Source: Elusimicrobiales bacterium | GTDB taxonomy: Bacteria > Elusimicrobiota > Elusimicrobia > Elusimicrobiales > UBA9959 | Direction: 5' to 3' | NCBI GenBank assembly: GCA_049972095.1 | Contig: JBMFKQ010000005.1 | Location: forward strand, 17,431-61,982 | Length of the DNA: 44,552 bases | Part shown: piece by piece, positions 1-12,104 of the stretch | Position numbering within the stretch: the first letter of the stretch is position 1 | Layout of the letters: each line of letters starts with the position of its first letter | Made by a program: the position numbers and the translations under genes | The notes under the pieces: model-generated | Told to the model about the DNA's origin: nothing | Database searches by the model: none | What the model saw: the letters and a program-made list of their open reading frames with translations, nothing else

Positions 1-18
1 ATCCTTTAAAACAGAGCT

Positions 19-1056
19 ATGGAAAAAGAGAATAAAGATTTTGAAGAACTTGTGAGAGATCTTAACTCACTTCTTGAGAAAATTCCTGATATGATAGGTA
101 AGCCAGAAGAGCAGATTTCTAAAATGGATGAGAAAGATCAAGAAGCTGATAATAAATCTGATACAGAGTTGCAGAATTTAAGCGATATTGAAAATTTTAT
201 AATAACACCACAAGCATCTGATGTTAAAAATAAGGATGTTGATAGCAGTGCTAAGAAATTAGAAGATAATCAGCAGGTTTTAGATATTGATAATGAAGAA
301 GAGAAAAAGAAGGATGATGTCAATGAGACTTTAAATCATAGTGCTGATGACATAAAACTTGAGCCTCCTGATGAGATGGTTATCCATAATGAAGATATAA
401 ATCAGTTCTCAGATGAGATTAAAACTGATATTCAAGTAGAGCAAAGCCCTGTTACATCACCATCCAGTTATGACATTGAATTAGATAAATCTGAAGAAAA
501 GGATAAAGATGAAAAGAGTTTTGAAATATTAGACTCACACCAGAAAGAAAAAGAATTTAGCGTTGATATTCAAAGTAGTTTTTTTGAAGAAGAACATCAA
601 ATACAGTGCACAGAAAAACAAAAGGATTTCAATAACCTTTTACTTTCAGATGAGTTGAAAGATATAATTTATGCCAAAAAACCCTCTGATGTTAGCGATG
701 AAAGGGTTAAGAAGATAGGCTTAGTATGTTCAATTAATGGTGAGACTGTGCTTAAGCACTTTTTAAGATATTTGGATGAGATATGTTTTTCATCAAAGAA
801 TAAAAAAATGTTTGTTGAAAGAAGTTTTGTTTTATTTTATGATGAAAACTTTTCAGTTGAGAACTTAATTATAAATGCTGGGAATGAAAAGGTTAATGCA
901 GTTGTGCTCATTGGTGAGATTCCTGTTGATAAAGTCTATGAGATTAAAAACGCTGTGTCTCAAGCAGGCTATATCTTCTTTTCGTTTAGCATGAAGAATC
1001 TTTCAAGATCCGAGGTTATTGATTTTGTTCTTGATTTAATTGCGGGAAGTGTATGA
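19..1056 (+). CDS. Hypothetical protein: long acidic low-complexity N-terminal region plus ~115-aa alpha/beta C-terminal domain shared with the next gene
   Basis: 345-aa ORF; in-frame TAA at 7-9 fixes the start; D/E-rich to about residue 230; ATGA overlap with the next gene. Confidence 0.85.
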   Translation: MEKENKDFEELVRDLNSLLEKIPDMIGKPEEQISKMDEKDQEADNKSDTELQNLSDIENFIITPQASDVKNKDVDSSAKKLEDNQQVLDIDNEEEKKKDDVNETLNHSADDIKLEPPDEMVIHNEDINQFSDEIKTDIQVEQSPVTSPSSYDIELDKSEEKDKDEKSFEILDSHQKEKEFSVDIQSSFFEEEHQIQCTEKQKDFNNLLLSDELKDIIYAKKPSDVSDERVKKIGLVCSINGETVLKHFLRYLDEICFSSKNKKMFVERSFVLFYDENFSVENLIINAGNEKVNAVVLIGEIPVDKVYEIKNAVSQAGYIFFSFSMKNLSRSEVIDFVLDLIAGSV

Positions 1057-2753
1057 TAGGAAAGTGGGAGATAAGAAAGATTGGTTCAAAAAAGGCACTT
1101 CTGCTTAAGGGAGATTTCAAGGATATTGTAAATATAATCAAGAAGATTGGACCTGTGCTTTCAAGACCTGAAAGGCTTTTGAAAGGGGATTATAATTTCA
1201 TAATGTATATACTTGAATCTAATGATTTAACTGAGGAAAAAATAAAAAAAGCAATAGAGAACATCACCTCAAAAATTACAGAGAAAAAACAGAAGGTCCT
1301 TGAGAAGAAAGAAGATATAAAAGATTTATCTAAGGACAAAGAGGTTGAAATACCAATGCCTGATTTTGAGGTTAAGCTTGAAACTAAAGAGGAGAAAAAA
1401 GAAGAATCTATAATAATACCTAAAGGTGGTCCTGTAACTCCAAAGAGAATTTCCGAAGACTCTGTAGATAAAAAAGATGGGAAAAAAACTGAGCAAAAGC
1501 CTGATCATAAGAAACTAACACCTCCTCCATCACCAAAGCTTTCCCAAAGAAGCATAGATAGACTCAAAATGCGCTGGTCAATAGAGCTTCCATTAAACCC
1601 AACATTGAGCTTTCAGACGCTAATCACTGGTTCTCATAATAGATTTGCTCATGCCGCAAGCATGGCAGTAGTTGAAAATCCTGGTGTTATGTATAATCCC
1701 ATACTGATATGGGGGCCGATAGGGAGTGGAAAATCTCATTTCATACACTCAATGTCTTATGGACTTTCATCAACAATGGGACAGAAGAATATATTTGTTA
1801 CAAATGGGGTTAAGTTTTCTGTTGGTGTCACGCTTGCAATAAAAGAAGGTTTCATAGACAGCATTGCTCAGCTAATAGAGAACTCAAAGGTTATTATAGT
1901 TGATGACATTCATCTTATGCTCATAAACAAGGAGAATAAGGCTTTTATAAGCAAGGTTATATCTGATTGTATGAGCTCAAACAAGCAGGTTATTTTCTCA
2001 TCACTCTTCTCGCCAAAAGAGCTTGAGCCTCTTGAATCAATGCTTGGTATAGAAATATCTCAGGGGTGGATGGTGGATATAAAGCCACCAAATCCTCAAA
2101 CATACAAAGCCATACTCAATCAAATACTTACAAATATGGATGTAAAACTTAGTGAGGATGATATAAAAAGGTTTTTTGTTGATAGATCTTTGGATTTTAG
2201 AACACTAACGGTGATGCTTTTTAGAATGAAGAAACTTGAAAAATACATCTCATCACAGAAACAATCTTTGTTGCATCAAGATCTGCTTGATATGCTTTTT
2301 GGTGATAATGATGATCTTTCTTCACCAACTCCCCAGGAAATAAAAGATGTAAACAGATATGCATCATCACCTGACAGCTTTTATAAATGGGGGATCTTCT
2401 ATCCAAAGGGCATGAAGGATTATGTTAACTATGTTCTTTACAAACTTTCGCAAACCTTTTCAAGCATAATTAAAACAAGCTTAAGCTGGTATCTCGTTTT
2501 TGAGGAGGAATATGATCCTGAGGAGGTCTATGGTGTAGCTTTCAAGATTGGGAACACTGTTCTTGAAAAAAATGTCAATGGCATAATAGTCATAGGACCC
2601 CAACCAACAAGTCCACTTGCTGCCAGGGAAGCTGAATTTAGACATCTCGTTGACAAGATAGTTGAGAGTTTAAATGTTAGAAGTGCCTGGATATATTCAT
2701 CACGCCTTAAGTCCCAGTCCAACTACCTCAATGCACTTCTTGATCTGATATGA
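1053..2753 (+). CDS. DnaA-like AAA+ ATPase-domain protein without DnaA domain IV (not a canonical initiator)
   Basis: LNPTLSFQTLITGSHNRFAHAASMAVVENPGVMYNPILIWGPIGSGKSH matches the DnaA domain III start and Walker A; Walker B VIIVDDIH; no recognisable domain IV helix-turn-helix. Confidence 0.85.
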   Translation: MIGKWEIRKIGSKKALLLKGDFKDIVNIIKKIGPVLSRPERLLKGDYNFIMYILESNDLTEEKIKKAIENITSKITEKKQKVLEKKEDIKDLSKDKEVEIPMPDFEVKLETKEEKKEESIIIPKGGPVTPKRISEDSVDKKDGKKTEQKPDHKKLTPPPSPKLSQRSIDRLKMRWSIELPLNPTLSFQTLITGSHNRFAHAASMAVVENPGVMYNPILIWGPIGSGKSHFIHSMSYGLSSTMGQKNIFVTNGVKFSVGVTLAIKEGFIDSIAQLIENSKVIIVDDIHLMLINKENKAFISKVISDCMSSNKQVIFSSLFSPKELEPLESMLGIEISQGWMVDIKPPNPQTYKAILNQILTNMDVKLSEDDIKRFFVDRSLDFRTLTVMLFRMKKLEKYISSQKQSLLHQDLLDMLFGDNDDLSSPTPQEIKDVNRYASSPDSFYKWGIFYPKGMKDYVNYVLYKLSQTFSSIIKTSLSWYLVFEEEYDPEEVYGVAFKIGNTVLEKNVNGIIVIGPQPTSPLAAREAEFRHLVDKIVESLNVRSAWIYSSRLKSQSNYLNALLDLI

Positions 2754-4582
2754 TTGCTCCTCTATTCATCTTTTTATCAGCATTTTTTGTTTCTTTCTGG
2801 TATATTAGATTCAGATATGTGCTTCCACTTCACAAGAAGATTGAAGAGTATAATAAATTCTACTTATCATTTGAAGATTTTATAGAATCTATCCTTTCTA
2901 CTGCAGTTTCATTCCGTAAAGAAGATTACCTCAATCTTACAAACATTATCTTAATAAAGTTTAACAACATAGTATCCGATGCATCTTTTTATATTGTTGA
3001 GAAAAAAGAGGATAATGTAAGCATTATAGGCGCTATAAACAAGGGTAATTTCAATATGGATCCTTCAAAGATTAAAGACATAGTTTTTTCTGCAAAGGAT
3101 GAGCTTTCATACATAGAAAGAGCTGATATATTTGAAGAGGAAAAAAAACATTTTGCTGTGATATCTCTCAATGATGGATTAAAGAATATCAGTATTGTTG
3201 CTATGATAAATGAAGAGGATAAGGATACTGTTTTAAGGTATTTCAGATTTATACTTCTATTCTTGAAAACCTTTCTTAATTATTACACTGAGATAGAAGA
3301 AAGAAACAGAGAGATAAAAAAGCTTAAGGCAGAGCTTGATGGTATAATTAAGGAGCTTGAAAGTCAGGAAACAAAGCTTATAAAAAAGCACAAGGAGGCA
3401 AGGCTTATATATGAAGGCATATCCACAATAAGCTGTGAGCTTGAAAATCCTGCCTCTTATCTCATAGAGCTTATTTACAGAACTATTACGCCTCAATTTG
3501 TGGTTTGCTTCGGTTATTCCAATGAGGATAATAAACTTGTAGCTCTTTTCACACAGCCATCTAACATCCAGATTGACTATAGAGTGGATCTCACAGAAGA
3601 GCAATCACCACTTACAAAGGTGTTTATCAATGCAAATCCTATGTATATAACTGACGAGCAAGATATAAGATCAATACCTTTTGTAAAAGACACAAATAGT
3701 CAGACTCTGCTTATTTTCCCTGTTATGACAGCAAAGAGAAAATATGGAGTAATAGTCATTTCTGATAGTAAAAAGAGAAAATATTCTCAGGATGATTTAT
3801 CACTGATTGAGATATATTCAAAACAGCTTGCACTCTTTATGAATCTTTCAGATCTATATTCAAAGATATCACAATATGCTATAAAGATGGAGAGTCTAAA
3901 TAAGATAAAGGATGAGTTTATAGCATCGGTAAACCATGAGATCAAAACACCTCTTACAACCATAAAAGGATTTCTTTCTGTTCTTCTTAATGGTGATGCG
4001 GGTTCTCTTAATGACCAGCAAATAGCATTTCTTAACCTTGTTGATCAAGCAACAAATAGATTAATAAATATAGTTACAAATCTTCTTGATATATCAAAGC
4101 TCACTTCAAAAGCAGATATAGAGATGGAAAAAGCAGATCTCATACAGACCATAAATACCCTTTTGCCATCGTTAAGAATGAAGGCATACTCTAAGAATAT
4201 AAGAATCATTTTTAATTCTGAGATTAAAAATGCTATGATTAAGATGGATAAACACTGGATAGCTCAGGTTATAAACAATCTTGTAGATAATGCAATAAAA
4301 TATTCCATGCCGTCAAGTGTTGTAAATATATCTGTTTATGATAAAGGAGATGTTGTGATTTTTTGTGTTGAGGATCATGGATATGGAATAGATGAAGAGG
4401 ATAAAAAATTCATATTTGAGAAATTTTTTAGAGGTAAGAATGTTTCTCTTAATACACAAGGCAGTGGGCTTGGTCTTGCAATAACCAAAACAATAATAGA
4501 AAAACACAATGGAAAGGTATGGTTTGAGTCAGAAAAAGGAAAGGGGAGCAAGTTTTATTTTGCCCTAAAAAAAACAGAATAA
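2750..4582 (+). CDS. Membrane-anchored GAF-domain sensor histidine kinase (HisKA + HATPase_c)
   Basis: N-terminal hydrophobic helix; GAF-like LLIFPV...YGVIVI...YSQDDLSLI; H-box NHEIKTPLTTIKG; N-box NLVDNAIKYS; G1 DHGYGI; F IFEKFFR; G2 GSGLGLAI. Confidence 0.93.
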   Translation: MIAPLFIFLSAFFVSFWYIRFRYVLPLHKKIEEYNKFYLSFEDFIESILSTAVSFRKEDYLNLTNIILIKFNNIVSDASFYIVEKKEDNVSIIGAINKGNFNMDPSKIKDIVFSAKDELSYIERADIFEEEKKHFAVISLNDGLKNISIVAMINEEDKDTVLRYFRFILLFLKTFLNYYTEIEERNREIKKLKAELDGIIKELESQETKLIKKHKEARLIYEGISTISCELENPASYLIELIYRTITPQFVVCFGYSNEDNKLVALFTQPSNIQIDYRVDLTEEQSPLTKVFINANPMYITDEQDIRSIPFVKDTNSQTLLIFPVMTAKRKYGVIVISDSKKRKYSQDDLSLIEIYSKQLALFMNLSDLYSKISQYAIKMESLNKIKDEFIASVNHEIKTPLTTIKGFLSVLLNGDAGSLNDQQIAFLNLVDQATNRLINIVTNLLDISKLTSKADIEMEKADLIQTINTLLPSLRMKAYSKNIRIIFNSEIKNAMIKMDKHWIAQVINNLVDNAIKYSMPSSVVNISVYDKGDVVIFCVEDHGYGIDEEDKKFIFEKFFRGKNVSLNTQGSGLGLAITKTIIEKHNGKVWFESEKGKGSKFYFALKKTE

Positions 4583-4583
4583 T

Positions 4584-5759
4584 TTATTTCTGCCATTTGT
4601 GAGCTACTGACTTTATTCTTTCTATTGCTTTATTTATATTCTCAAGCGAGTTTGCATATGAAAATCTTAAATATCCTTCTCCAAAACTTCCAAAGCATGT
4701 CCCACTCAAAACTGCAACTCCAGCCTCATAAAGCAGTAGCTCAGCCAGCTCCTGAGATTTCATACCCGTGCCTTTTATATTTGGGAAAACATAAAAAGCA
4801 CCTTTTGGTGTCCTGCATGAAAACCCTGGTATTTCATTAAGCCCTTTAACTATTGCATCTCTTCTTTTCTTAAACTCTCTTACCATTTTTTTTACAGAGT
4901 TCTGGGGACCTCTAAGTGCTTCAATTAGAGCCTTTTGACCAAAAGCAGCAGCACATGAAACTGAGTTTGTAATTAGCTTTGTTATATAAGGAGCAAGTTT
5001 CGAGGGACACAATCCATATCCAAGCCTCCAGCCTGTCATTGCATATGTTTTTGAAAGTCCATCAAGCACCACGGTTCTTTCTCTCATACCAGGATAAGTT
5101 GCTATCGATGTATGCTCAAAACCATAGATTATCCTACTGTATATCTCATCTGAAAGAACATAGATATGTGGATTTTTTTTAAGTATTTCATATATCTCGT
5201 CCATCTGTTGTTTTGTTATAACACCACCTGTTGGGTTTGCAGGTGAGTTTATAATAAGAAGCTTTGTTTTAGGTGTTATTAGCTTTTCAAGATCCTTGGG
5301 ATCAAAGTTGAAATCATTTTCTTCTCTTATATGAAGTGAAACAACCTTACCTCCAACAAAATTAACAAGAGATTCATATATAGGATATGATGGATTTGGA
5401 CATATAACCTCATCACCCTCATCAACAAGTGCAAGAATTGTGTAAAGCATCACAGGCTTCCCACCAACAGTTATAACAACATCATCAGCTCGTGCAGAAA
5501 TACCAGGCCTTGTTTTATTTAGATAATCAGCAACAACCTCTCTTGCCTCAAGTATTCCTGCTGATGGTGTGTAGTGTGTAAATCCATTTTTTATCGCCTC
5601 AACTCCAGCCTTTTTTATGTTTCTCGGAGTATCAAAGTCCGGCTCCCCTATTTCAAGATGAATTATATCTTTGCCTTCTGCCTCAAGTTTTTTTGCTTTT
5701 GCAAGAACCTCAAATGCAGTCTCTGTCCCAAGCCTATTCATTCTCGAAGCTAAATTCAT
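4584..5759 (-). CDS. PLP-dependent class I/II aminotransferase (aspartate aminotransferase-like)
   Basis: GEPDFDTP, NSPANPTG, SDEIY, SKTYAMTGWRLG (PLP lysine); strong GGAGG RBS. Confidence 0.93.
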   Translation of the reverse strand: MNLASRMNRLGTETAFEVLAKAKKLEAEGKDIIHLEIGEPDFDTPRNIKKAGVEAIKNGFTHYTPSAGILEAREVVADYLNKTRPGISARADDVVITVGGKPVMLYTILALVDEGDEVICPNPSYPIYESLVNFVGGKVVSLHIREENDFNFDPKDLEKLITPKTKLLIINSPANPTGGVITKQQMDEIYEILKKNPHIYVLSDEIYSRIIYGFEHTSIATYPGMRERTVVLDGLSKTYAMTGWRLGYGLCPSKLAPYITKLITNSVSCAAAFGQKALIEALRGPQNSVKKMVREFKKRRDAIVKGLNEIPGFSCRTPKGAFYVFPNIKGTGMKSQELAELLLYEAGVAVLSGTCFGSFGEGYLRFSYANSLENINKAIERIKSVAHKWQK

Positions 5760-6846: not shown

Positions 6847-8127
6847 ATGAAAAGGGTGATCCTTATTGGATTAGTTTTTTTTGCATCATGTTATTCAAAC
6901 ATAAAAAAACAGCAGGATTTATTACTCAAATATACTGCTGTGCCAAAATGTAAAGAGGATGAGGTGCTTGTATGTAAAAAGATTGAGGTTAGAGAGGCTG
7001 ATATAGTCAAAGCTGATGCAAAAAATATAAACTTTGAGTTTCCATTAGACGAAAGCTTTAAAAAAGCTCTTGAGATGAATATAAAGTATCTTACTAAACT
7101 TGATCGCGAGATAAAATATAAATTTGCAGATAGAATCATTGATAAGAACACCCTTGTCTTATCAGCACTAAAACTTAAAGATATTGTTGAAAGTTCTACA
7201 AATGCAGATGAATTTAGAAAGAAGGTTATTGAAAATTTTGATTTTTATGAGCTTGTTAAGGGAAGTGAAGCAGTGACTTTTAGCTCATATTATGAGCCTA
7301 TTTTTGAAGCAAGTTTTAAAAAGGATGAAATTTACAGGTTTCCTATCTACAGAAAACCTGATGATATGGTTGAGGTAAACCTTGAAGATTTTGATGCAGA
7401 TAAATACAAAGGGCAGAAACTAACAGGAAGGCTTTTAGGCACAAAGATGCTGCCATACTATTCCAGAGAAGAGATAGATTTTGATGGCATTCTTTCAGGT
7501 AAAGGATATGAGATAGCATATCTTAAAGATATAACAGATCTGCTTGATCTTCATACTCAGGGTTCTGGAATACTTAAGATAAGAGAGGGGGGATATAAAA
7601 GAGCAAGGTTTGCTGCTACAAACTCACTTAAATTTAAAGGATGGATGAGCACACTACTTGAAAATGGATATATAGAGAGAAAAGGAGCTATTGGGGAAGA
7701 TAAAACATTTTATGATAGAGCAAAAGATTTTATAAATAAAAACCCACAGCTATGGCGACAGATTATATCTCAAAACAAAAGATATGTATTTTTTTATCTT
7801 GATGATCTAAAGTCATTTGACGAAGGGCCAATTGGAAGCTATGGCTTAAGCCTTGTTGCCCACAGATCCGTTGCAGTTGATAACTCTCTGATACCTCTTG
7901 GAACTGTTGCTTTTGTGAGTTTGGAACTTCCCGATATTGATGAGAGTCTAAATTTTAAAGGTTTTAAACCTTCAAACAGATTTGTATTTTGCCATGACAC
8001 AGGAGGTGCAATAAAGGGAGCAAGGGTTGATTATTTTGCAGGAACTGGTGATAAGGCTAAAAAATTTGCCTATTCAGTGTGGAAAAAGGGAAATTTTTAT
8101 CTTATGGTTGCTAAGGAAAAGATATGA
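6847..8127 (+). CDS. mltA: MltA-family lytic murein transglycosylase lipoprotein
   Basis: Lipobox-like FASC; SYYEP, HTQGSG, N..YVFF, AVD...IPLG, 3D motif DTGGAIKGARVDYF; GGAGG RBS. Confidence 0.9.
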   Translation: MKRVILIGLVFFASCYSNIKKQQDLLLKYTAVPKCKEDEVLVCKKIEVREADIVKADAKNINFEFPLDESFKKALEMNIKYLTKLDREIKYKFADRIIDKNTLVLSALKLKDIVESSTNADEFRKKVIENFDFYELVKGSEAVTFSSYYEPIFEASFKKDEIYRFPIYRKPDDMVEVNLEDFDADKYKGQKLTGRLLGTKMLPYYSREEIDFDGILSGKGYEIAYLKDITDLLDLHTQGSGILKIREGGYKRARFAATNSLKFKGWMSTLLENGYIERKGAIGEDKTFYDRAKDFINKNPQLWRQIISQNKRYVFFYLDDLKSFDEGPIGSYGLSLVAHRSVAVDNSLIPLGTVAFVSLELPDIDESLNFKGFKPSNRFVFCHDTGGAIKGARVDYFAGTGDKAKKFAYSVWKKGNFYLMVAKEKI

Positions 8128-9314
8128 AATCTCTTTTAGCTCATATACTTTACTTTGCTTTCTCGCTTTCATCCCAAGCAGAGCTATTGACAGGGATAGA
8201 TATTCTTGAAAAAAATAATTTTGATATTCTTAAAGGCAGAAGGGTAGGCCTTATAATAAACCACACATCGCTGGATAGAAATGGTAGAAGTGATGTAGAT
8301 GTAATGATTGATGCGGGGGTTGATATTAGAGCAATTTTTAGCCCTGAGCATGGTTTTATGGGAAATGAGAAAGCAGGTGCAGATGTGTTGGATTCATCAT
8401 ACAGAGGTATTTCAGTATATAGTCTTTATGGTAAGAATAAAAGACCGGATGATAAAATGCTTGAAAATATTGATACACTTGTCTTTGATATTCAGGATGT
8501 TGGAGCAAGATTCTACACATATCTTACAACGATGGGATATGCCATGGAAGAAGCAGCTAAGAAGAAAATAAGATTTATTGTTCTTGACAGACCAAATCCT
8601 ATTTCATCTTCAATTATGGAAGGTCCTGTCCTTGATGATGATATAAAGGCATTTACAGCATATTTTGCTGTGCCTGTAAGACATTCTCTTACAGCTGGTG
8701 AGATGGCTATTTTTCATAAGATTAAATCAAATATCGATCTTGAACTTTATGTGGTTAGGATGGAAGGGTATAAAAGGGATATGTTTTTTGATGAGACATC
8801 AATTAAATGGGTTAACCCTTCGCCTAACATAAGAAATCTAAATACTGCTATTCTCTATCCAGGTATAGGATGCTTTGAGGCGACAAATATCTCTGTTGGA
8901 AGAGGCACTGATATTCCTTTTGAATTTTTTGGTTCTCCCTGGCTTGATAATTCAAGGATCAGTGATGAGCTAAACAAAAGAAAACTTAAAGGGGTTGAGT
9001 TTAAGCCATGCTACAGAGTTCCTTCCGAGGATCTTTATGCCGGTGAGGTAGTTAATGGGGTTTGTATTAAAGTTACAGACAAAAGAAAGGTTAGAGCATT
9101 TGATATTTTTGTAAATGCAATATATTTGATAAATGCCTTTTATCCTGATAAGCTTGTTATAAGAGAGAGAGAAATCACACTTATGACAGGGAGCAAGGAC
9201 TTTTATCTTCTTCTAAAAAATGGAGCAACGCCAAAACAAATAGTTAGAAGATATAACAAAGCTTTAAAAGATTTTAAAAAATACCTTAAGAAAAACAATA
9301 TAAAGCTCTATTGA
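8124..9314 (+). CDS. namZ: Exo-beta-N-acetylmuramidase, NamZ/DUF1343 family, with signal peptide
   Basis: RVGLIINHTS, FSPEHG, FDIQDVGARFYTY, LDRPNP, PSPN, SVGRGT. Confidence 0.88.
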   Translation: MKSLLAHILYFAFSLSSQAELLTGIDILEKNNFDILKGRRVGLIINHTSLDRNGRSDVDVMIDAGVDIRAIFSPEHGFMGNEKAGADVLDSSYRGISVYSLYGKNKRPDDKMLENIDTLVFDIQDVGARFYTYLTTMGYAMEEAAKKKIRFIVLDRPNPISSSIMEGPVLDDDIKAFTAYFAVPVRHSLTAGEMAIFHKIKSNIDLELYVVRMEGYKRDMFFDETSIKWVNPSPNIRNLNTAILYPGIGCFEATNISVGRGTDIPFEFFGSPWLDNSRISDELNKRKLKGVEFKPCYRVPSEDLYAGEVVNGVCIKVTDKRKVRAFDIFVNAIYLINAFYPDKLVIREREITLMTGSKDFYLLLKNGATPKQIVRRYNKALKDFKKYLKKNNIKLY

Positions 9315-9316
9315 AA

Positions 9317-10753
9317 CTACCATCTCAAATTTGGTTTCCGTGCAGCCAAAACCTCATCAACCCTTTTTACGGGCATTGTATGAGGTGCATTTTTAACAAT
9401 TTCAGGATTGTTTTTCCCCTCTTCATATATCTTTACCATTGCGCTTATAAACTCATCAAGTGTTTGTTTGTTTTCTGTCTCAGTTGGCTCTATCATAAGT
9501 GCCTCATGGACTATAAGCGGAAAATATATTGTTGGTGCATGAAAGCCATAATCAAGAAGTCTTTTTGCTATGTCCAAGGTTTTTACGCCTTTGTCAAGGA
9601 TCTCTTTCGCAGGGGTAAGGACACATTCATGCATACAGTATTCTTTTGAATATGCTGGATATATCTTTTCAAGTTTTGATTTTATATAGTTTGCGTTTAT
9701 TATCGCATTTTCTGATATCTGTCTTAAATCTTTGGGTCCGTGCATAAGAAGATATGTGTATGCTTTTAGTAGAACCTGGGTGTTTGTGAAAAACGCTTTT
9801 ATCCTTCCTATTGTATTTGGTCTTTTTTCATCAAGTATATATTTATCACCTTCCTTCACAACAACAGGTATTGGAAGAAACTCTGATAAGAATGATTTTA
9901 CCAAAACAGCACCACTTCCAGGACCTCCTCCACCATGAGGGGTTGAAAATGTTTTATGAAGGTTTAGATGGAGTATATCAATGCCAAAGTTTGCTGGTTT
10001 TACAAGCCCTATAAGAGCATTCATATTTGCTCCATCCATATACACCAATGTGCCATTTTCGTGGCAGAGATTTACTATTTCTTCTATCTGGGTCTCAAAT
10101 ATTCCAAGCGTGTTTGGAATTGTAAGCATTAATACGGCGGTTGTTGATTTAAGATTTTCTTTAAGCAGTTTTAGATCTATTCTCCCATCAGAGGATGAGC
10201 GGATGTTTATTGTTTTAAATTCAGCCATTGTAACAGTTGCTGGATTTGTGCCATGAGCAGAGTCTGGAATTATTATTTCGTTTCTTTTTTCCCCTTTTTT
10301 TTCAAAATATTTCCTTGCTATTAAAATTCCTGTAAATTCTCCATGGGCTCCTGCAGCAGGCCACATCGTTCCATCATCCATCCCACATATCTCACATAAT
10401 CTTGATTTTATGTCATGTATTATCTCAAGCGTTCCCTGTGCTGCGAAATCTGGAACAAGTGGATGGAGTGAAATAAATCCATCAAATGATGAGGTCTCTT
10501 CATTTATTTTAGGATTGTATTTCATTGTGCAGGAGCCAAGTGGATAGAAATGAGTGTCTATAGAAAAATTCAATTTTGACATTCTTGTAAAGTGTCTTAC
10601 TGTGTCAAACTCTGAGAGTTGTGGTAGCTTTGGTTTGCTGGTTCTTAAAAACCTTTTATCTATATCCTCTATTTTTTCTGCACTTTTAAAATGAACTCCC
10701 CTTCTACCATCCTTTGATTTTTCTATACTGAGTTTAAGCTCAAAATTTTCCAT
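9317..10753 (-). CDS. gcvPB: Glycine dehydrogenase subunit 2 (P-protein beta chain)
   Basis: YPLGSCTMKYNP, AHGTNPA, LNLHKTFSTPHGGGGPG; start moved to ATG 10753, which has a GGAGG RBS (track start 10816 overlaps gcvPA). Confidence 0.95.
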   Translation of the reverse strand: MENFELKLSIEKSKDGRRGVHFKSAEKIEDIDKRFLRTSKPKLPQLSEFDTVRHFTRMSKLNFSIDTHFYPLGSCTMKYNPKINEETSSFDGFISLHPLVPDFAAQGTLEIIHDIKSRLCEICGMDDGTMWPAAGAHGEFTGILIARKYFEKKGEKRNEIIIPDSAHGTNPATVTMAEFKTINIRSSSDGRIDLKLLKENLKSTTAVLMLTIPNTLGIFETQIEEIVNLCHENGTLVYMDGANMNALIGLVKPANFGIDILHLNLHKTFSTPHGGGGPGSGAVLVKSFLSEFLPIPVVVKEGDKYILDEKRPNTIGRIKAFFTNTQVLLKAYTYLLMHGPKDLRQISENAIINANYIKSKLEKIYPAYSKEYCMHECVLTPAKEILDKGVKTLDIAKRLLDYGFHAPTIYFPLIVHEALMIEPTETENKQTLDEFISAMVKIYEEGKNNPEIVKNAPHTMPVKRVDEVLAARKPNLRW

Positions 10754-10766
10754 TTTATCCCTCCAA

Positions 10767-12104
10767 CTATCTAATAACCTTGCAGGTTTTTGTAAGTGCC
10801 TCAACAAGTTCATCAATATCTTTTTCTGTCTTTGTCTCTGTTATAGCAACAAGAAGTAAATTTTCAAAATCCTTCCCAAATTCTTTAAGCGCAAGTCCAG
10901 GGTCTATTGAAAATTTTTTTATAATCCTTTCTCTGACATGTTGTGATTTTTTATTAAGCTCTACAACAAACTCATTGAAGAATGGCTTTGAAAACTTAAT
11001 TTTAAAGCCTTGAGCTTCAATCATATTTTTTGTCTTAACTGCAAGTGTATGATTCAACTCTGCAAGCTCTTTCAAACCCTCAGCACCAAGCAGGGTTACA
11101 TAAACTGTTACCCACACCGCACACAGTGCCTGATTTGAACATATATTTGAAGGGGCTTTTTCCCTTCTTATATGCTGCTCTCTTGCTTGAAGTGTTAAAA
11201 CAAATGCTCTTCTACCATCTTTATCTATGCTCATCCCACATACTTTACCCGGCATCTGCCTTAGATGATCCTTCTTGCAGGTAAAGATCCCCAGGTAAGG
11301 TCCACCATATGAGAGTGGAAGTCCTAAGGATTGCCCTTCGCCAACAGCAAAGTCATAGCCTGCCTCACCCGGGGTTTTAAGGATTGCAAGAGAAAGAGGA
11401 TCTGCAACGCATATGCTTAAAATATTTTTCTCTTTTGCAATTTTATTAAACTCTTCTATATCCTCTATTATGCCAAAATAGTTTGGATTTGATATTATAA
11501 AGCAGGATGTCTTGTCGTCAATCATTTTTTTAAACTCATCAATATCACTTTGACCATCGCTGTGAGGTATAGCCACAAACTCATACTCTGAAGGTGGAAT
11601 ATATGTTTTTACAACATCAATATACCTTGGATTTACAAGGGATGAGTAGATAATCTTTGTTTTTGAATTGATTCTAATGCATGCCTTTACAGCCTCGGCA
11701 AGTGCGGTTGAACCATCATACATAGAAGCATTTGAGTAATCCATACCATAAAGTTCTGCCATAATGCTTTGAAATTCATACATTGCCTGTAAAGTTCCCT
11801 GGCTTGCCTCAGCTTGATATGGAGTATATGCTGTTAAAAATTCTGTTCTTTGAATTATATGTTTTATTGCTGCAGGTATATATCTTTCATAAACTCCGCC
11901 ACCTGCAAATGACTTAAGCCTCATATTCTTTTCACTTAAAGTCTTCATCTTCATATATGCTTCCATCTCACTGAAAGCATTTGGAAGGTTAAAGTCTTGT
12001 GTTATAAATTTTTGAGGCAGTTGTTTTAAAAGCTCTTTAAAATCTCCTACGCCAATTTCCCTTAGCATTTCTTTTCTTTCTTCTTCAGTGTTTGAAATAA
12101 ACAT
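10767..12104 (-). CDS. gcvPA: Glycine dehydrogenase subunit 1 (P-protein alpha chain)
   Basis: TAYTPYQAEASQGTLQ, NASMYDG, REQHIRREKAPSNICSNQAL. Confidence 0.95.
   Translation of the reverse strand: MFISNTEEERKEMLREIGVGDFKELLKQLPQKFITQDFNLPNAFSEMEAYMKMKTLSEKNMRLKSFAGGGVYERYIPAAIKHIIQRTEFLTAYTPYQAEASQGTLQAMYEFQSIMAELYGMDYSNASMYDGSTALAEAVKACIRINSKTKIIYSSLVNPRYIDVVKTYIPPSEYEFVAIPHSDGQSDIDEFKKMIDDKTSCFIISNPNYFGIIEDIEEFNKIAKEKNILSICVADPLSLAILKTPGEAGYDFAVGEGQSLGLPLSYGGPYLGIFTCKKDHLRQMPGKVCGMSIDKDGRRAFVLTLQAREQHIRREKAPSNICSNQALCAVWVTVYVTLLGAEGLKELAELNHTLAVKTKNMIEAQGFKIKFSKPFFNEFVVELNKKSQHVRERIIKKFSIDPGLALKEFGKDFENLLLVAITETKTEKDIDELVEALTKTCKVIR

Follow-up and report, generated by a model that had tools for sequence, protein, structure and literature searches.

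Judged from its sequence, P0001, a protein of an Elusimicrobiales bacterium, is a lineage-specific paralogue of DnaA in the Elusimicrobia. Known DnaA-type ATPases serve as initiators (DnaA), inactivate DnaA (Hda) or load helicases. The explanation we favor for P0001, with about even chances of being right, is that it serves a signalling module as a switch or adaptor that binds ATP but hydrolyzes it poorly. New here are a C-terminal domain resembling the MID domain of Argonaute, a loss of the arginine finger that is restricted to one clade, and the translational coupling of the gene to both of its neighbors. The gene lies on contig JBMFKQ010000005.1 of assembly GCA_049972095.1, and coordinates refer to the window, i.e., the whole 44,552-nt stretch of DNA that was analyzed. 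The datasets listed as containing it are two DNA datasets, both of them hot-spring metagenomes, and no RNA dataset.

The features of P0001 and its two partners are as follows.
19..1056, plus strand: P0002, the upstream partner (345 aa), with an N-terminal helix motif of ~25 aa, an acidic disordered region and a C-terminal alpha/beta-type domain of ~115 aa.
1053..2753, stop codon included, plus strand: P0001, DnaA-derived paralogue (566 aa), from the ORF, Pfam, TIGR00362, phmmer against the PDB and an AlphaFold model.
1053..1307, plus strand: N-terminal domain of P0001 (residues 1-85), beta-beta-alpha-beta-beta-alpha fold with an invariant SRPE motif (37-40).
1308..1541, plus strand: disordered K/E/P-rich linker (residues 86-163), pLDDT < 50.
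1575..1601, plus strand: invariant peptide W-S-I-E-L-P-L-N-P (residues 175-183), which precedes the AAA+ core, pLDDT 53-62.
1590..2087, plus strand: AAA+ alpha/beta core of DnaA type (residues 180-345), from PF00308, the 8bv3 alignment and Foldseek.
Residues 195-202 and 252-277, plus strand: HNRFAHAA segment and two-helix insert of the AAA+ core.
1713..1736, plus strand: Walker A GPIGSGKS (residues 221-228), read in the P0001 translation.
1902..1913, plus strand: Walker B DDIH (residues 284-287), read in the translation.
1998..2015, plus strand: altered box VI SSLFSP (residues 316-321), read in the translation.
2037..2069, plus strand: altered box VII SMLGIEISQGW (residues 329-339), read in the translation.
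2088..2300, plus strand: AAA+ lid (residues 346-416), a helical bundle with helices 348-361, 368-376, 382-399 and 408-416 in the AlphaFold model.
2193..2207, plus strand: sensor-II-like DFRTL (residues 381-385), read in the translation, within the lid.
2358..2750, plus strand: C-terminal domain (residues 436-566), (beta-alpha)x4, in place of DnaA domain IV.
2750..4582, plus strand: P0003, the downstream partner (610 aa), an N-terminally anchored GAF-HisKA-HATPase_c histidine kinase without a receiver domain.

The likeness of P0001 to the AAA+ domain of DnaA is far above chance. The DnaA-type module comprises residues 180-403 (nt 1590-2261), and Pfam Bac_DnaA (PF00308) matches residues 181-341 over profile positions 1-161 of 162, with E 9.7e-27 and 94.6 bits (cut-off 23). 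A phmmer search of the PDB retrieved domain III of B. subtilis DnaA (8bv3) at E 2.8e-25, and Foldseek placed the AAA+ part on isolated domain III in 8bv3_A (TM 0.79) and 2z4r_A (TM 0.80). The DnaA model TIGR00362 also matches (E 1.4e-39), but its 136.4 bits stay below the cut-off of 343.9, and the Hda model TIGR03420, with its cut-off at 194.8, yields 41.3 bits.

All five motifs that the preliminary description had named, i.e., Walker A, Walker B, SSLFSP, SMLGIEISQGW and DFRTL, are located in the P0001 translation. Within the P0001 clade, G221, G224, K227 and S/T228 of Walker A are present in 114/114 members and G226 in 113/114, the Walker B residues D284 and D285 in 114/114, and HNRFAHA is invariant (n=114). 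The same description had claimed that the sensor-I aspartate and the box VII arginine are gone, and the alignments bear this out. In the HMMER alignment with 8bv3, box VI of DnaA (ISSDRPPKE) lies opposite FSSLFSPKE of P0001, with Leu at the sensor-I Asp, and in box VII DnaA LEDRLRSRFEWGL lies opposite P0001 LESMLGIEISQGW. In the same alignment, RLRSRF of B. subtilis DnaA is found opposite MLGIEI, and the three basic positions of box VII have become Met, Gly and Glu. No clade member (0/114) has R or K within positions 324-343, and position 318, the sensor-I Asp site, is V in 72, L in 33, M in 8 and I in 1 of the 114 and never D. Conservation extends to the substituted residues of boxes VI and VII, with F319 in 113/114 and both G338 and W339 in 114/114. 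The claim of a sensor-II-like DFRTL holds for P0001 itself, where Arg383 is present, but R is found at 383 in just 23/114 close relatives. A basic residue occurs at either 383 or 387, one helical turn on, in 102/114 clade members, which would be predicted if sensing of the nucleotide were still important, and the reading of P0001 as a nucleotide switch fits the conserved ATP pocket.

A canonical dnaA (ITSDRKP, RLISRF) adjoins dnaN and dciA on another contig of the genome (C36), and its domain IV is found on fragment C53 (PF08299, E 3.6e-27), so P0001 is a paralogue and not the initiator. In P0001, PF08299 (Bac_DnaA_C) gives no match at E <= 1 and the C-terminus is modelled as alpha/beta with no helix-turn-helix; DnaA_N gives no Pfam match at E <= 1 either. 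These results agree with the earlier statements that domain IV is missing and that the N-terminus is unlike DnaA domain I. The view of P0001 as neither an initiator nor an Hda, for which a canonical dnaA elsewhere in the genome had been a named check, likewise stands, given that gene, the scores (136 vs 344 bits for DnaA, 41 vs 195 for Hda), and the missing domain IV and finger.

The DciA encoded beside dnaN scores 26.6 bits, which is over the cut-off. DciA is described as part of the replication operon in Elusimicrobia and as present in genomes lacking dnaC/dnaI (PMC5109545). Its presence weakens the idea that P0001 itself loads the replicative helicase, as an initiator-clade derivative resembling DnaC/DnaI. 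P0001 does show weak matches to IstB_IS21 (24.2 bits, cut-off 24.1), DnaI (E 8.4e-4) and the IS21 helper ATPase. However, the IS21 helper scores 28 bits vs 200 and DnaI 18.7 vs 228, the borderline IstB_IS21 score is expected for any initiator-clade AAA+, and P0001 has no finger. We therefore regard a loader function as highly improbable.

The region in front of the AAA+ core has three parts. The N-terminal domain is modelled with pLDDT ~90 and has K30, S37, R38 and P39 invariant; it is not recognizable as DnaA domain I, and an Atlas search with it returned just generic small alpha/beta folds (Rpo11-like, YajQ, TRCF; TM 0.57-0.72). The linker ranges from 59 to 232 aa in the whole-protein alignment A1, with a median of 119. 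Immediately before the core, 114/114 members have [SPA][MIV]E[LI]PL in a low-pLDDT stretch and without a leading Gln, and W175, E178, P180, L181 and P183 are invariant (114/114). The W-S-I-E-L-P-L-N-P peptide may be a docking peptide.

By alignment, the C-terminal domain is the most conserved part of P0001, with a mean column identity of 63% in alignment A3 (n=80) vs 38% for the whole protein in A1, a pattern that points to strong purifying selection. K445, K452, Y487, T518, S520 and K543 are among its conserved residues. Its model (pLDDT 89.6, pTM 0.84) is a four-stranded (beta-alpha)x4 fold, which is a common fold. When this model was compared by VIA-align, the best 16 rows were all Ago/PIWI MID domains (Z 9.2-11.9, rmsd 2.5-4.2 A, 104-126 residues aligned), led by Drosophila Piwi 6kr6_A (Z 11.9, rmsd 2.9 A, 116 residues). 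Lumazine synthase, LacI-type and receiver domains reached Z 8-9.2. Foldseek also put MjAgo and the MID domain of hAGO2 on top, at E 2.7e-4 to 2e-3. On the predicted structure, MID is thus the best match for the C-terminal domain, above generic Rossmann-like folds. The sequence identity to MID domains is 6-17%, PF16487 (Pfam ArgoMid) matches 0/80 family members even at E <= 10, no Pfam family was found in the C-terminal domain of any of the 80, and the Pfam search of P0001 gave no Piwi match. The NarL receiver (Z 8.0) ranked under 47 other rows, and Response_reg has no Pfam match in P0001 or the 80 family members.

A MID-like domain raises the question of whether P0001 binds a nucleotide or the 5' end of a nucleic acid and, with the AAA+ part coupling ATP, processes incoming or damaged DNA together with ComM and DprA. 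The ranking of the MID rows above the other folds would agree with this, as would the loops at the C-terminal sheet edge (FYPKG, EEY, GPQPTS), which show little or no variation. In 23/35 related loci ComM is at +5, and ComM and DprA are close behind the paralogue in both sister-family loci examined. However, both genes are on another contig in the present genome, the conserved loop that follows strand 2 (EEYxxDELYG) has a strongly acidic character ill-suited to direct phosphate binding, and the low identity, the missing ArgoMid matches and the commonness of the fold also speak against it. We consider a nucleotide- or end-binding role of this kind quite unlikely.

The gene context of P0001 points to a kinase-linked module rather than to replication genes. 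The P0002 stop and P0001 start, and likewise the P0001 stop and P0003 start, overlap as ATGA, and by this arrangement P0001 is translationally coupled to both partners. A P0002 homologue is found directly upstream in 62/75 evaluable related loci, and a homologue of the GAF kinase P0003 directly downstream in 68/70. P0003 matches HATPase_c (4e-28), HisKA (1.2e-15) and GAF_2 (1.3e-7) in Pfam, and no response regulator is encoded in the P0002-P0001-P0003 operon. No Pfam family was found in P0002; its acidic disordered region is 30% D+E, and the N-terminal helix motif and C-terminal domain are both conserved. In relatives, genes for a lipoprotein, ComM and DprA flank the trio; here they are on another contig and the trio stands alone.

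The C-terminal domains of P0001 and P0002 appear collinear by eye, both ending in LDLI, but homology between them was not shown: BLASTP gave no match and hhalign a weak one (probability 5.4%, E 0.0072; in a second comparison 1.4%, E 0.038). One Atlas structure row is a 652-aa Elusimicrobiota hypothetical protein (TM 0.65) that may belong to this family.

The two sister-family genomes examined encode the paralogue, in forms of 1097 aa and 1624 aa with linkers hundreds of residues long, and have neither P0002 nor an orthologous GAF kinase, so the core function cannot depend on these partners. A P0002-P0001 fusion had been considered for the sister-family frames of 900-1600 aa; the two that were read have a hugely expanded linker instead. 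The HMM of the P0002 N-terminal motif gave no match to the long sister-family frames (best E 0.15), and the P0002 C-domain profile found nothing in the two sister-family genomes.

Among records with a source-named organism, the P0001 family is found in Elusimicrobiota only. Presence was scored with the C-domain profile, which detected the marker domain in 209/301 sampled genomes across the phylum, as a single copy in 207/209. The whole-protein profile also picks up canonical DnaA, and its tally of 293/301 was set aside for this purpose. The marker domain was found in 0/47 genomes of family f14 and in none of families f4, f8 and f9, all at least 90% complete, and in f14 all 81 genomes that match the whole-protein profile do so at about the level of canonical DnaA. 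The database names of family members include 'DnaA/Hda family protein', 'ATPase involved in DNA replication initiation' and 'chromosomal replication initiator protein DnaA'; judging by titles and abstract openings, we found no paper that describes the family. The wide occurrence of the marker domain, the intact frame in 80/80 related loci, the 55 invariant columns of A1 (n=114) and the conserved replacements F319, G338 and W339 together refute the view of P0001 as a decaying, functionless dnaA duplicate. The lost catalytic residues and domain IV would suit such decay, but the conservation leaves it virtually no chance.

The finger position separates the P0001 clade from the wider family. Of 105 wider-family representatives, 25 have R and 22 have K there, and one member, P0263, keeps every DnaA motif. 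The ancestral activity of the family probably involved finger-coupled assembly. In the P0001 clade the position is Q, E, N or D, and the counts of R or K (0/114 vs 47/105) indicate that finger loss is a trait of this clade only. The P0263 locus was not found in the metagenome scan and had no match at E <= 1e-90 in 401 Elusimicrobiota genomes.

Members of the P0001 clade may still form assemblies with a different AAA+ protein, DnaA for example. In AAA+ spirals, an ATP-binding subunit that offers no finger sits at the assembly end. It is conceivable, although unlikely, that P0001 caps or poisons DnaA oligomers at the origin as a chain terminator, perhaps under control of the kinase. By a mechanism that we grade as equally unlikely, the ATP face of P0001 would take the DnaA finger, and its own finger face (Glu, Met, Gly) could neither bring in nor activate the following DnaA-ATP. 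P0001 is far closer to DnaA than to any other relative (136 bits vs 41 for Hda; 8bv3 at E 2.8e-25), and both the ATP pocket and the initiator-typical two-helix insert are retained. The genome encodes one copy of P0001 and one DnaA carrying PF00308, and DnaA is therefore the only DnaA-type AAA+ partner found. In this genome, however, P0001 shows no linkage with dnaA, dnaN or the origin. Its neighbors are the genes of a kinase and of a disordered protein; in relatives, they are those of lipoproteins, ComM and DprA. The marker domain is also absent from the 47 f14 genomes and from f4, f8 and f9. Since the finger position is still R or K in many relatives, capping cannot be the general job of the family.

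In the switch or adaptor that we prefer, P0001 has kept the plan of DnaA and exchanged domain IV for the Argonaute-MID-like alpha/beta domain. Its clade has also lost the box VII arginines and the sensor-I Asp, on which the coupling of ATP to self-assembly and to hydrolysis depends. The intact pocket motifs suggest that P0001 binds ATP, and hydrolysis is predicted to be poor. From the missing parts, we infer that it forms no DnaA-type finger-coupled filaments and does not bind DnaA boxes. Instead, it would act via protein or ligand contacts of the C-terminal and N-terminal domains, both highly conserved, and of the invariant pre-core peptide. In this lineage, P0001 would work as one unit with the co-translated P0002 and the membrane-anchored P0003 and probably gates or scaffolds the kinase signalling of P0003, gene order and linkage being the evidence for this partnership. 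A more elaborate version, which we find quite unlikely, is a bacterial signalling device of a new type: a DnaA-derived ATP switch with a MID-like ligand- or 5'-end-binding domain in place of the DNA-binding one, tethered by an invariant clamp-motif-like peptide and a long acidic partner, would inform an orphan histidine kinase in the membrane about the state of nucleotides or nucleic acids, or, in reverse, the kinase would throttle replication via capping of DnaA filaments.

The P0001 family would be a fourth use of the DnaA-type module, beside initiator, inactivator and helicase loader. This use would be phylum-wide and strongly conserved, with DNA binding dropped, a MID-like domain gained and the finger lost in one clade. 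The family also offers a natural series on the role of the finger and of ATP hydrolysis, from the full motifs of P0263 through the R or K of 47/105 wider-family members to none in the P0001 clade. These questions are testable because WP_012414333.1 of the cultured Elusimicrobium minutum Pei191 is a family member. In addition, labels of the type 'chromosomal replication initiator protein DnaA' mislead annotation and the prediction of origins.

Compared with DnaA (8bv3, 8btg, 2z4r, 1l8q), P0001 shares the HNRFAHAA-type segment, Walker A GxxGxGK[ST]H, the DD of Walker B preceded by the two-helix insert, and the helical lid, as well as the plan of a small N-terminal domain followed by a flexible linker and the ATPase. 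It differs in having no domain IV, no recognizable domain I, no sensor-I Asp and no box VII basic residues, in carrying the extra MID-like domain, and in not being adjacent to dnaN. Hda and HdaA are likewise DnaA-type AAA+ proteins without domain IV. The N-terminal clamp-binding hexapeptide of E. coli Hda is given as QLSLPL, and its box VII arginine R153 as required for RIDA (PMC3836487). The conserved, hydrophobic x[LIMV]xLPL peptide of P0001 sits where E. coli Hda has QLSLPL, but lacks the leading Gln, and R153 has no counterpart in P0001. Hda is a single domain of ~230-250 aa by the lengths of the Hda models, whereas P0001 has 566 aa and two extra domains. With the MID domain of Argonaute/PIWI proteins, P0001 shares the four-stranded Rossmann-like fold, but it has no PIWI or PAZ partner domain and no detectable sequence relation. 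Within its own family, the P0001 clade, with Q, E, N or D at the finger position, contrasts with the E. minutum form, in which this position is Lys and the linker is several hundred residues long. The other family members share the architecture of P0001, and also its operon partners in those cases where the partners occur.

P0001, the DnaA-derived paralogue, is encoded by an intact reading frame flanked by two neighbour genes, and the span singled out in the preliminary description (1590-2260) corresponds to its residues 180-403.

Features of the locus and of P0001 (structural elements are from an AlphaFold model predicted without templates)
Window 19..1056, + strand: P0002, upstream gene, 345 aa
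Window 1053..2753, + strand: P0001, intact ORF, 566 aa
Window 2750..4582, + strand: P0003, downstream gene, 610 aa
P0001 residues 1-85: small N-terminal beta-beta-alpha-beta-beta-alpha domain (model)
Residues 86-163: disordered stretch (model)
Residues 221-228: Walker A, GPIGSGKS
Residues 252-277: two-helix insert of the AAA+ core, ahead of Walker B (model)
Residues 284-287: Walker B, DDIH
Residues 316-321: SSLFSP
Residues 329-339: SMLGIEISQGW
Residues 348-416: four-helix lid (model)
Residues 381-385: DFRTL
Residues 444-565: C-terminal (beta-alpha)x4 domain (model)

All motifs quoted in the preliminary description are in place, and Pfam Bac_DnaA matches over profile positions 1-161 of 162 (E 9.7e-27); judged from sequence, the AAA+ module with its Walker A and B motifs is unambiguously of DnaA type. 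In the PDB, phmmer matches domain III of B. subtilis DnaA (8bv3, E 2.8e-25), and Hda reaches just E 3e-4. TIGR00362 matches with E 1.4e-39, but its 136 bits fall short of the cut-off (344). When aligned with 8bv3, DnaA ISSDRPPKE lies opposite FSSLFSPKE of P0001, and LEDRLRSRFEWGL opposite LESMLGIEISQGW. Therefore, the sensor-I Asp is replaced by Leu (SSDR against SSLF), and Met, Gly and Glu stand where box VII has its three basic residues, which bears out the reported loss of sensor I and of the arginine finger. Bac_DnaA_C and DnaA_N gave no match to P0001 at E <= 1 in the Pfam search, in agreement with the claims that domain IV is absent and that the N-terminus is unlike DnaA domain I.

Elsewhere in the genome of the window (1.44 Mb in 58 contigs; completeness 96.5%), PF00308 matches a second protein more strongly (E 8.8e-55). 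Its gene is on contig C36, immediately 5' of dnaN, and the protein carries ITSDRKP and ERLISRF and is 24% identical to P0001 over 212 residues. Its domain IV region is a run of N, and C53, a contig of 523 bases that overlaps this dnaA on both sides of the gap, matches PF08299 with E 3.6e-27. The interruption of canonical dnaA here is an assembly split, and the gene is not truncated. A DciA gene (26.6 bits, above the cut-off) adjoins dnaN on C36. As a canonical dnaA with dnaN and DciA lies on C36, P0001 is a paralogue and not the initiator, and the presence of DciA also makes it unlikely that P0001 is a helicase loader.

A word-indexed search with P0001 gave 179 proteins at E <= 0.001, and among the 120 listed every source-named protein is an Elusimicrobia/Elusimicrobiota record. 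Database names for these genes include "DnaA/Hda family protein" and even "chromosomal replication initiator protein DnaA", and the literature on Elusimicrobia DnaA and DnaA paralogues (titles and opening lines of abstracts) yielded no description of the family. P0001 and 113 of the 120 were aligned, leaving out a 99% duplicate (P0005), near-duplicates (P0027, P0029, P0032 and P0033) and partial sequences (P0036 and P0117). G221, G224, K227 and S/T228 of Walker A and D284 and D285 of Walker B occur in 114/114 sequences, G226 in 113/114, and HNRFAHA (195-201) does not vary. At position 318 only V, L, M or I occur, with no D in any sequence, and F follows at 319 in 113. Position 334, the equivalent of the finger, has Q in 88, E in 15, N in 8 and D in 3, and none of the 114 has R or K anywhere within 324-343. 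This conservation excludes a decaying gene. The sensor-II-like DFRTL fares less well: the motif is present, but Arg383 is R in just 23/114. A basic residue is found at 383 or one helical turn on, at 387, in 102/114, with 383 used in the closest relatives and 387 in the remainder. It looks like a relocated sensor-II-type residue, the equivalence being uncertain by a few residues.

The model of P0001 from the 114-sequence alignment has a mean pLDDT of 81.9 and a pTM of 0.67. Foldseek ranks DnaA domain III first for the whole model (8bv3_A, E 9.3e-12, TM 0.79; 2z4r_A, TM 0.80), followed by Hda and clamp-loader subunits. The C-domain (residues 436-566) folded alone from 80 sequences with pLDDT 89.6 and pTM 0.84. 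Compared with about 48,000 PDB representatives, its top 16 rows are Argonaute/PIWI MID domains only (Z 9.2-11.9), led by Drosophila Piwi (6kr6_A; Z 11.9, rmsd 2.9 A, 116 residues aligned). Below these come lumazine synthase (Z 9.2), LacI-type domains (about 8.5) and the NarL receiver (8.0). Foldseek (MjAgo 2.7e-4, hAGO2 MID domain 1.1e-3) and an Atlas structure search gave the same MID lead. The similarity is one of fold without sequence relation, with 6-17% identity to MID domains and no match to PF16487 (Argonaute MID) in any of 80 members, even at E <= 10. The predicted C-terminus is therefore not a helix-turn-helix, which the preliminary description had named as a finding that would speak against it, and in the model it is a MID-like Rossmann-type domain. 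A role of this domain in binding nucleotide or a 5' end, perhaps in connection with ComM and DprA, is quite improbable in our judgement.

P0001 overlaps both P0002 and P0003 by ATGA stop/start junctions. P0002 has no Pfam family in a Pfam search; its relatives share a conserved N-terminal helix of about 25 aa, a disordered acidic or proline-rich region of very variable length and a conserved C-terminal domain, and are 136-824 aa long (ORF script calls, some cut). The N-terminal motif (consensus KKKESIDEILSDLNGLLNKMPSILDGIK; KENKDFEELVRDLNSLLEKIPDMIGK in the P0002 of window 19-1056) looks like a putative docking helix. P0003 is a kinase of GAF-HisKA-HATPase_c layout; it has a single hydrophobic segment, which is N-terminal, and the Pfam search found no receiver domain in it. 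Among 80 related loci from species-representative genomes (71 titled Elusimicrobi*, 9 only "bacterium"), a P0002 homologue ends <= 150 nt upstream in 62/75 with a flank of at least 900 nt, and a P0003 homologue starts <= 300 nt downstream in 68/70 with at least 1500 nt; the counts rest on our own ORF calling, and divergent partners may escape them because single-sequence phmmer was used. Common further neighbours in relatives are a MiaB-like radical-SAM enzyme, a HEAT protein, a 367-aa protein without family, GNA1162-like and CsgG-like lipoproteins, and ComM. The window's locus has none of these, and minus-strand aminotransferase genes bracket its trio. The lipoprotein-ComM-DprA block that lies 3' of the paralogue-kinase pair in many relatives is on another contig here (GNA1162-like lipoprotein, CsgG-like lipoprotein, ComM and DprA in a row, C17:15332-19843).

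Two sister-family paralogues reach 1097 aa (L085:3789-7082, +) and 1624 aa (L086:4398-9272, -) owing to a linker expanded to several hundred acidic/proline-rich residues; another representative, P0219, has 2568 aa. Neither a P0002-like gene nor an orthologous GAF kinase was found in these two genomes, where the lipoprotein-ComM-DprA run lies directly 3' of the paralogue. Thus, the paralogue is the constant element, and its partners, P0002 and the kinase, are particular to certain lineages; the long acidic linker in cis may stand in for P0002 in trans.

Elsewhere in the window (region 8000-12000), GC skew flips from +0.15 to about -0.12 near 10 kb and large ORFs shift from mostly + to mostly - strand near 9.3 kb, which may be mere coding-strand bias. 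The only public runs with window 1-4600 are two hot-springs metagenome DNA data sets (shares 0.92 and 0.73), with no RNA run among those listed.

The distribution was counted with the C-domain profile, which has no matches to canonical DnaA, as the whole-protein profile is confounded by them. It matches 209/301 sampled Elusimicrobiota genomes (at least 90% complete), with two copies in 2 genomes and one in all others that have it.

Genomes with a C-domain match, by Elusimicrobiota family
f1 (own family): 44/44
f2 (sister family): 90/90
f7: 37/41
f5: 8/8
f14: 0/47
f4: 0/5
f8: 0/4
f9: 0/4

Over 1.84 billion cluster representatives, the same profile found 183 proteins at E <= 0.001, and in nearly all of the 150 listed the match sits at or near the C-terminus. 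PF00308 was present in 8/8 long proteins scanned, and 7/7 short ones had no Pfam family; from the sequences read, the latter look like N-terminally cut gene calls. When 105 of those listed (at least 430 aa) were aligned to the clade profile, position 334 was R in 25, K in 22, S in 25, Q in 18 and other in 15, with Lys in Elusimicrobium minutum Pei191 (WP_012414333.1, 1097 aa). P0263, a metagenomic protein of 641 aa, combines the family's N-domain and MID-like C-domain with a near-canonical DnaA core (PF00308 208 bits, ASDRP, RLRSRFEWGL, VREL) and has a zinc-ribbon-like CxxC...CxxC insert between lid and C-domain. P0263 could be an intermediate in evolution, or else an initiator whose DNA-binding domain has been swapped; a search for its gene context gave no match at E <= 1e-90 in 401 Elusimicrobiota genomes. 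On these alignments, the missing finger is therefore a trait of the window's clade and not of the family, and the exchange of domain IV probably preceded finger loss, unless P0263 has reacquired its DnaA core.

An AAA+ spiral ends at a subunit that has an ATP face but no finger. A cap that terminates DnaA oligomers is thus mechanistically sound, and the PF00308 search of the genome gave DnaA as the sole partner of this AAA+ type. However, the gene context has no tie to replication, whole families have DnaA but no paralogue, and R or K is kept at the finger position in other branches, and we consider the cap rather improbable. About evenly balanced, in our view, is the proposal that P0001 is an ATP-binding slow switch or adaptor which works with P0002 and the kinase in the window's lineage. 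The nucleotide pocket is intact and conserved, the trans-acting and sensor-I residues are lost in the clade, domain IV has given way to a very conserved domain, and operon coupling is tight. P0001 would bind ATP without finger-coupled hydrolysis in a homo-oligomer, and would therefore behave as a slow switch or adaptor, with functional contacts likely made through the conserved N-domain, the C-domain and the pre-core peptide.

This peptide, W175-[SPA]-[MIV]-E-[LI]-P-L-x-P183, is invariant and lies in a low-confidence stretch of the model. Its [SPA][MIV]E[LI]PL appears to resemble the clamp hexapeptide of Hda, QLSLPL (PMC3836487), though it has no Gln. The family represents a new architecture among AAA+ proteins of the initiator clade. 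As the preliminary description had held, P0001 is neither an initiator nor an Hda: it differs from DnaA in domain IV, finger, sensor I, score and locus, and from Hda in score, finger and architecture.
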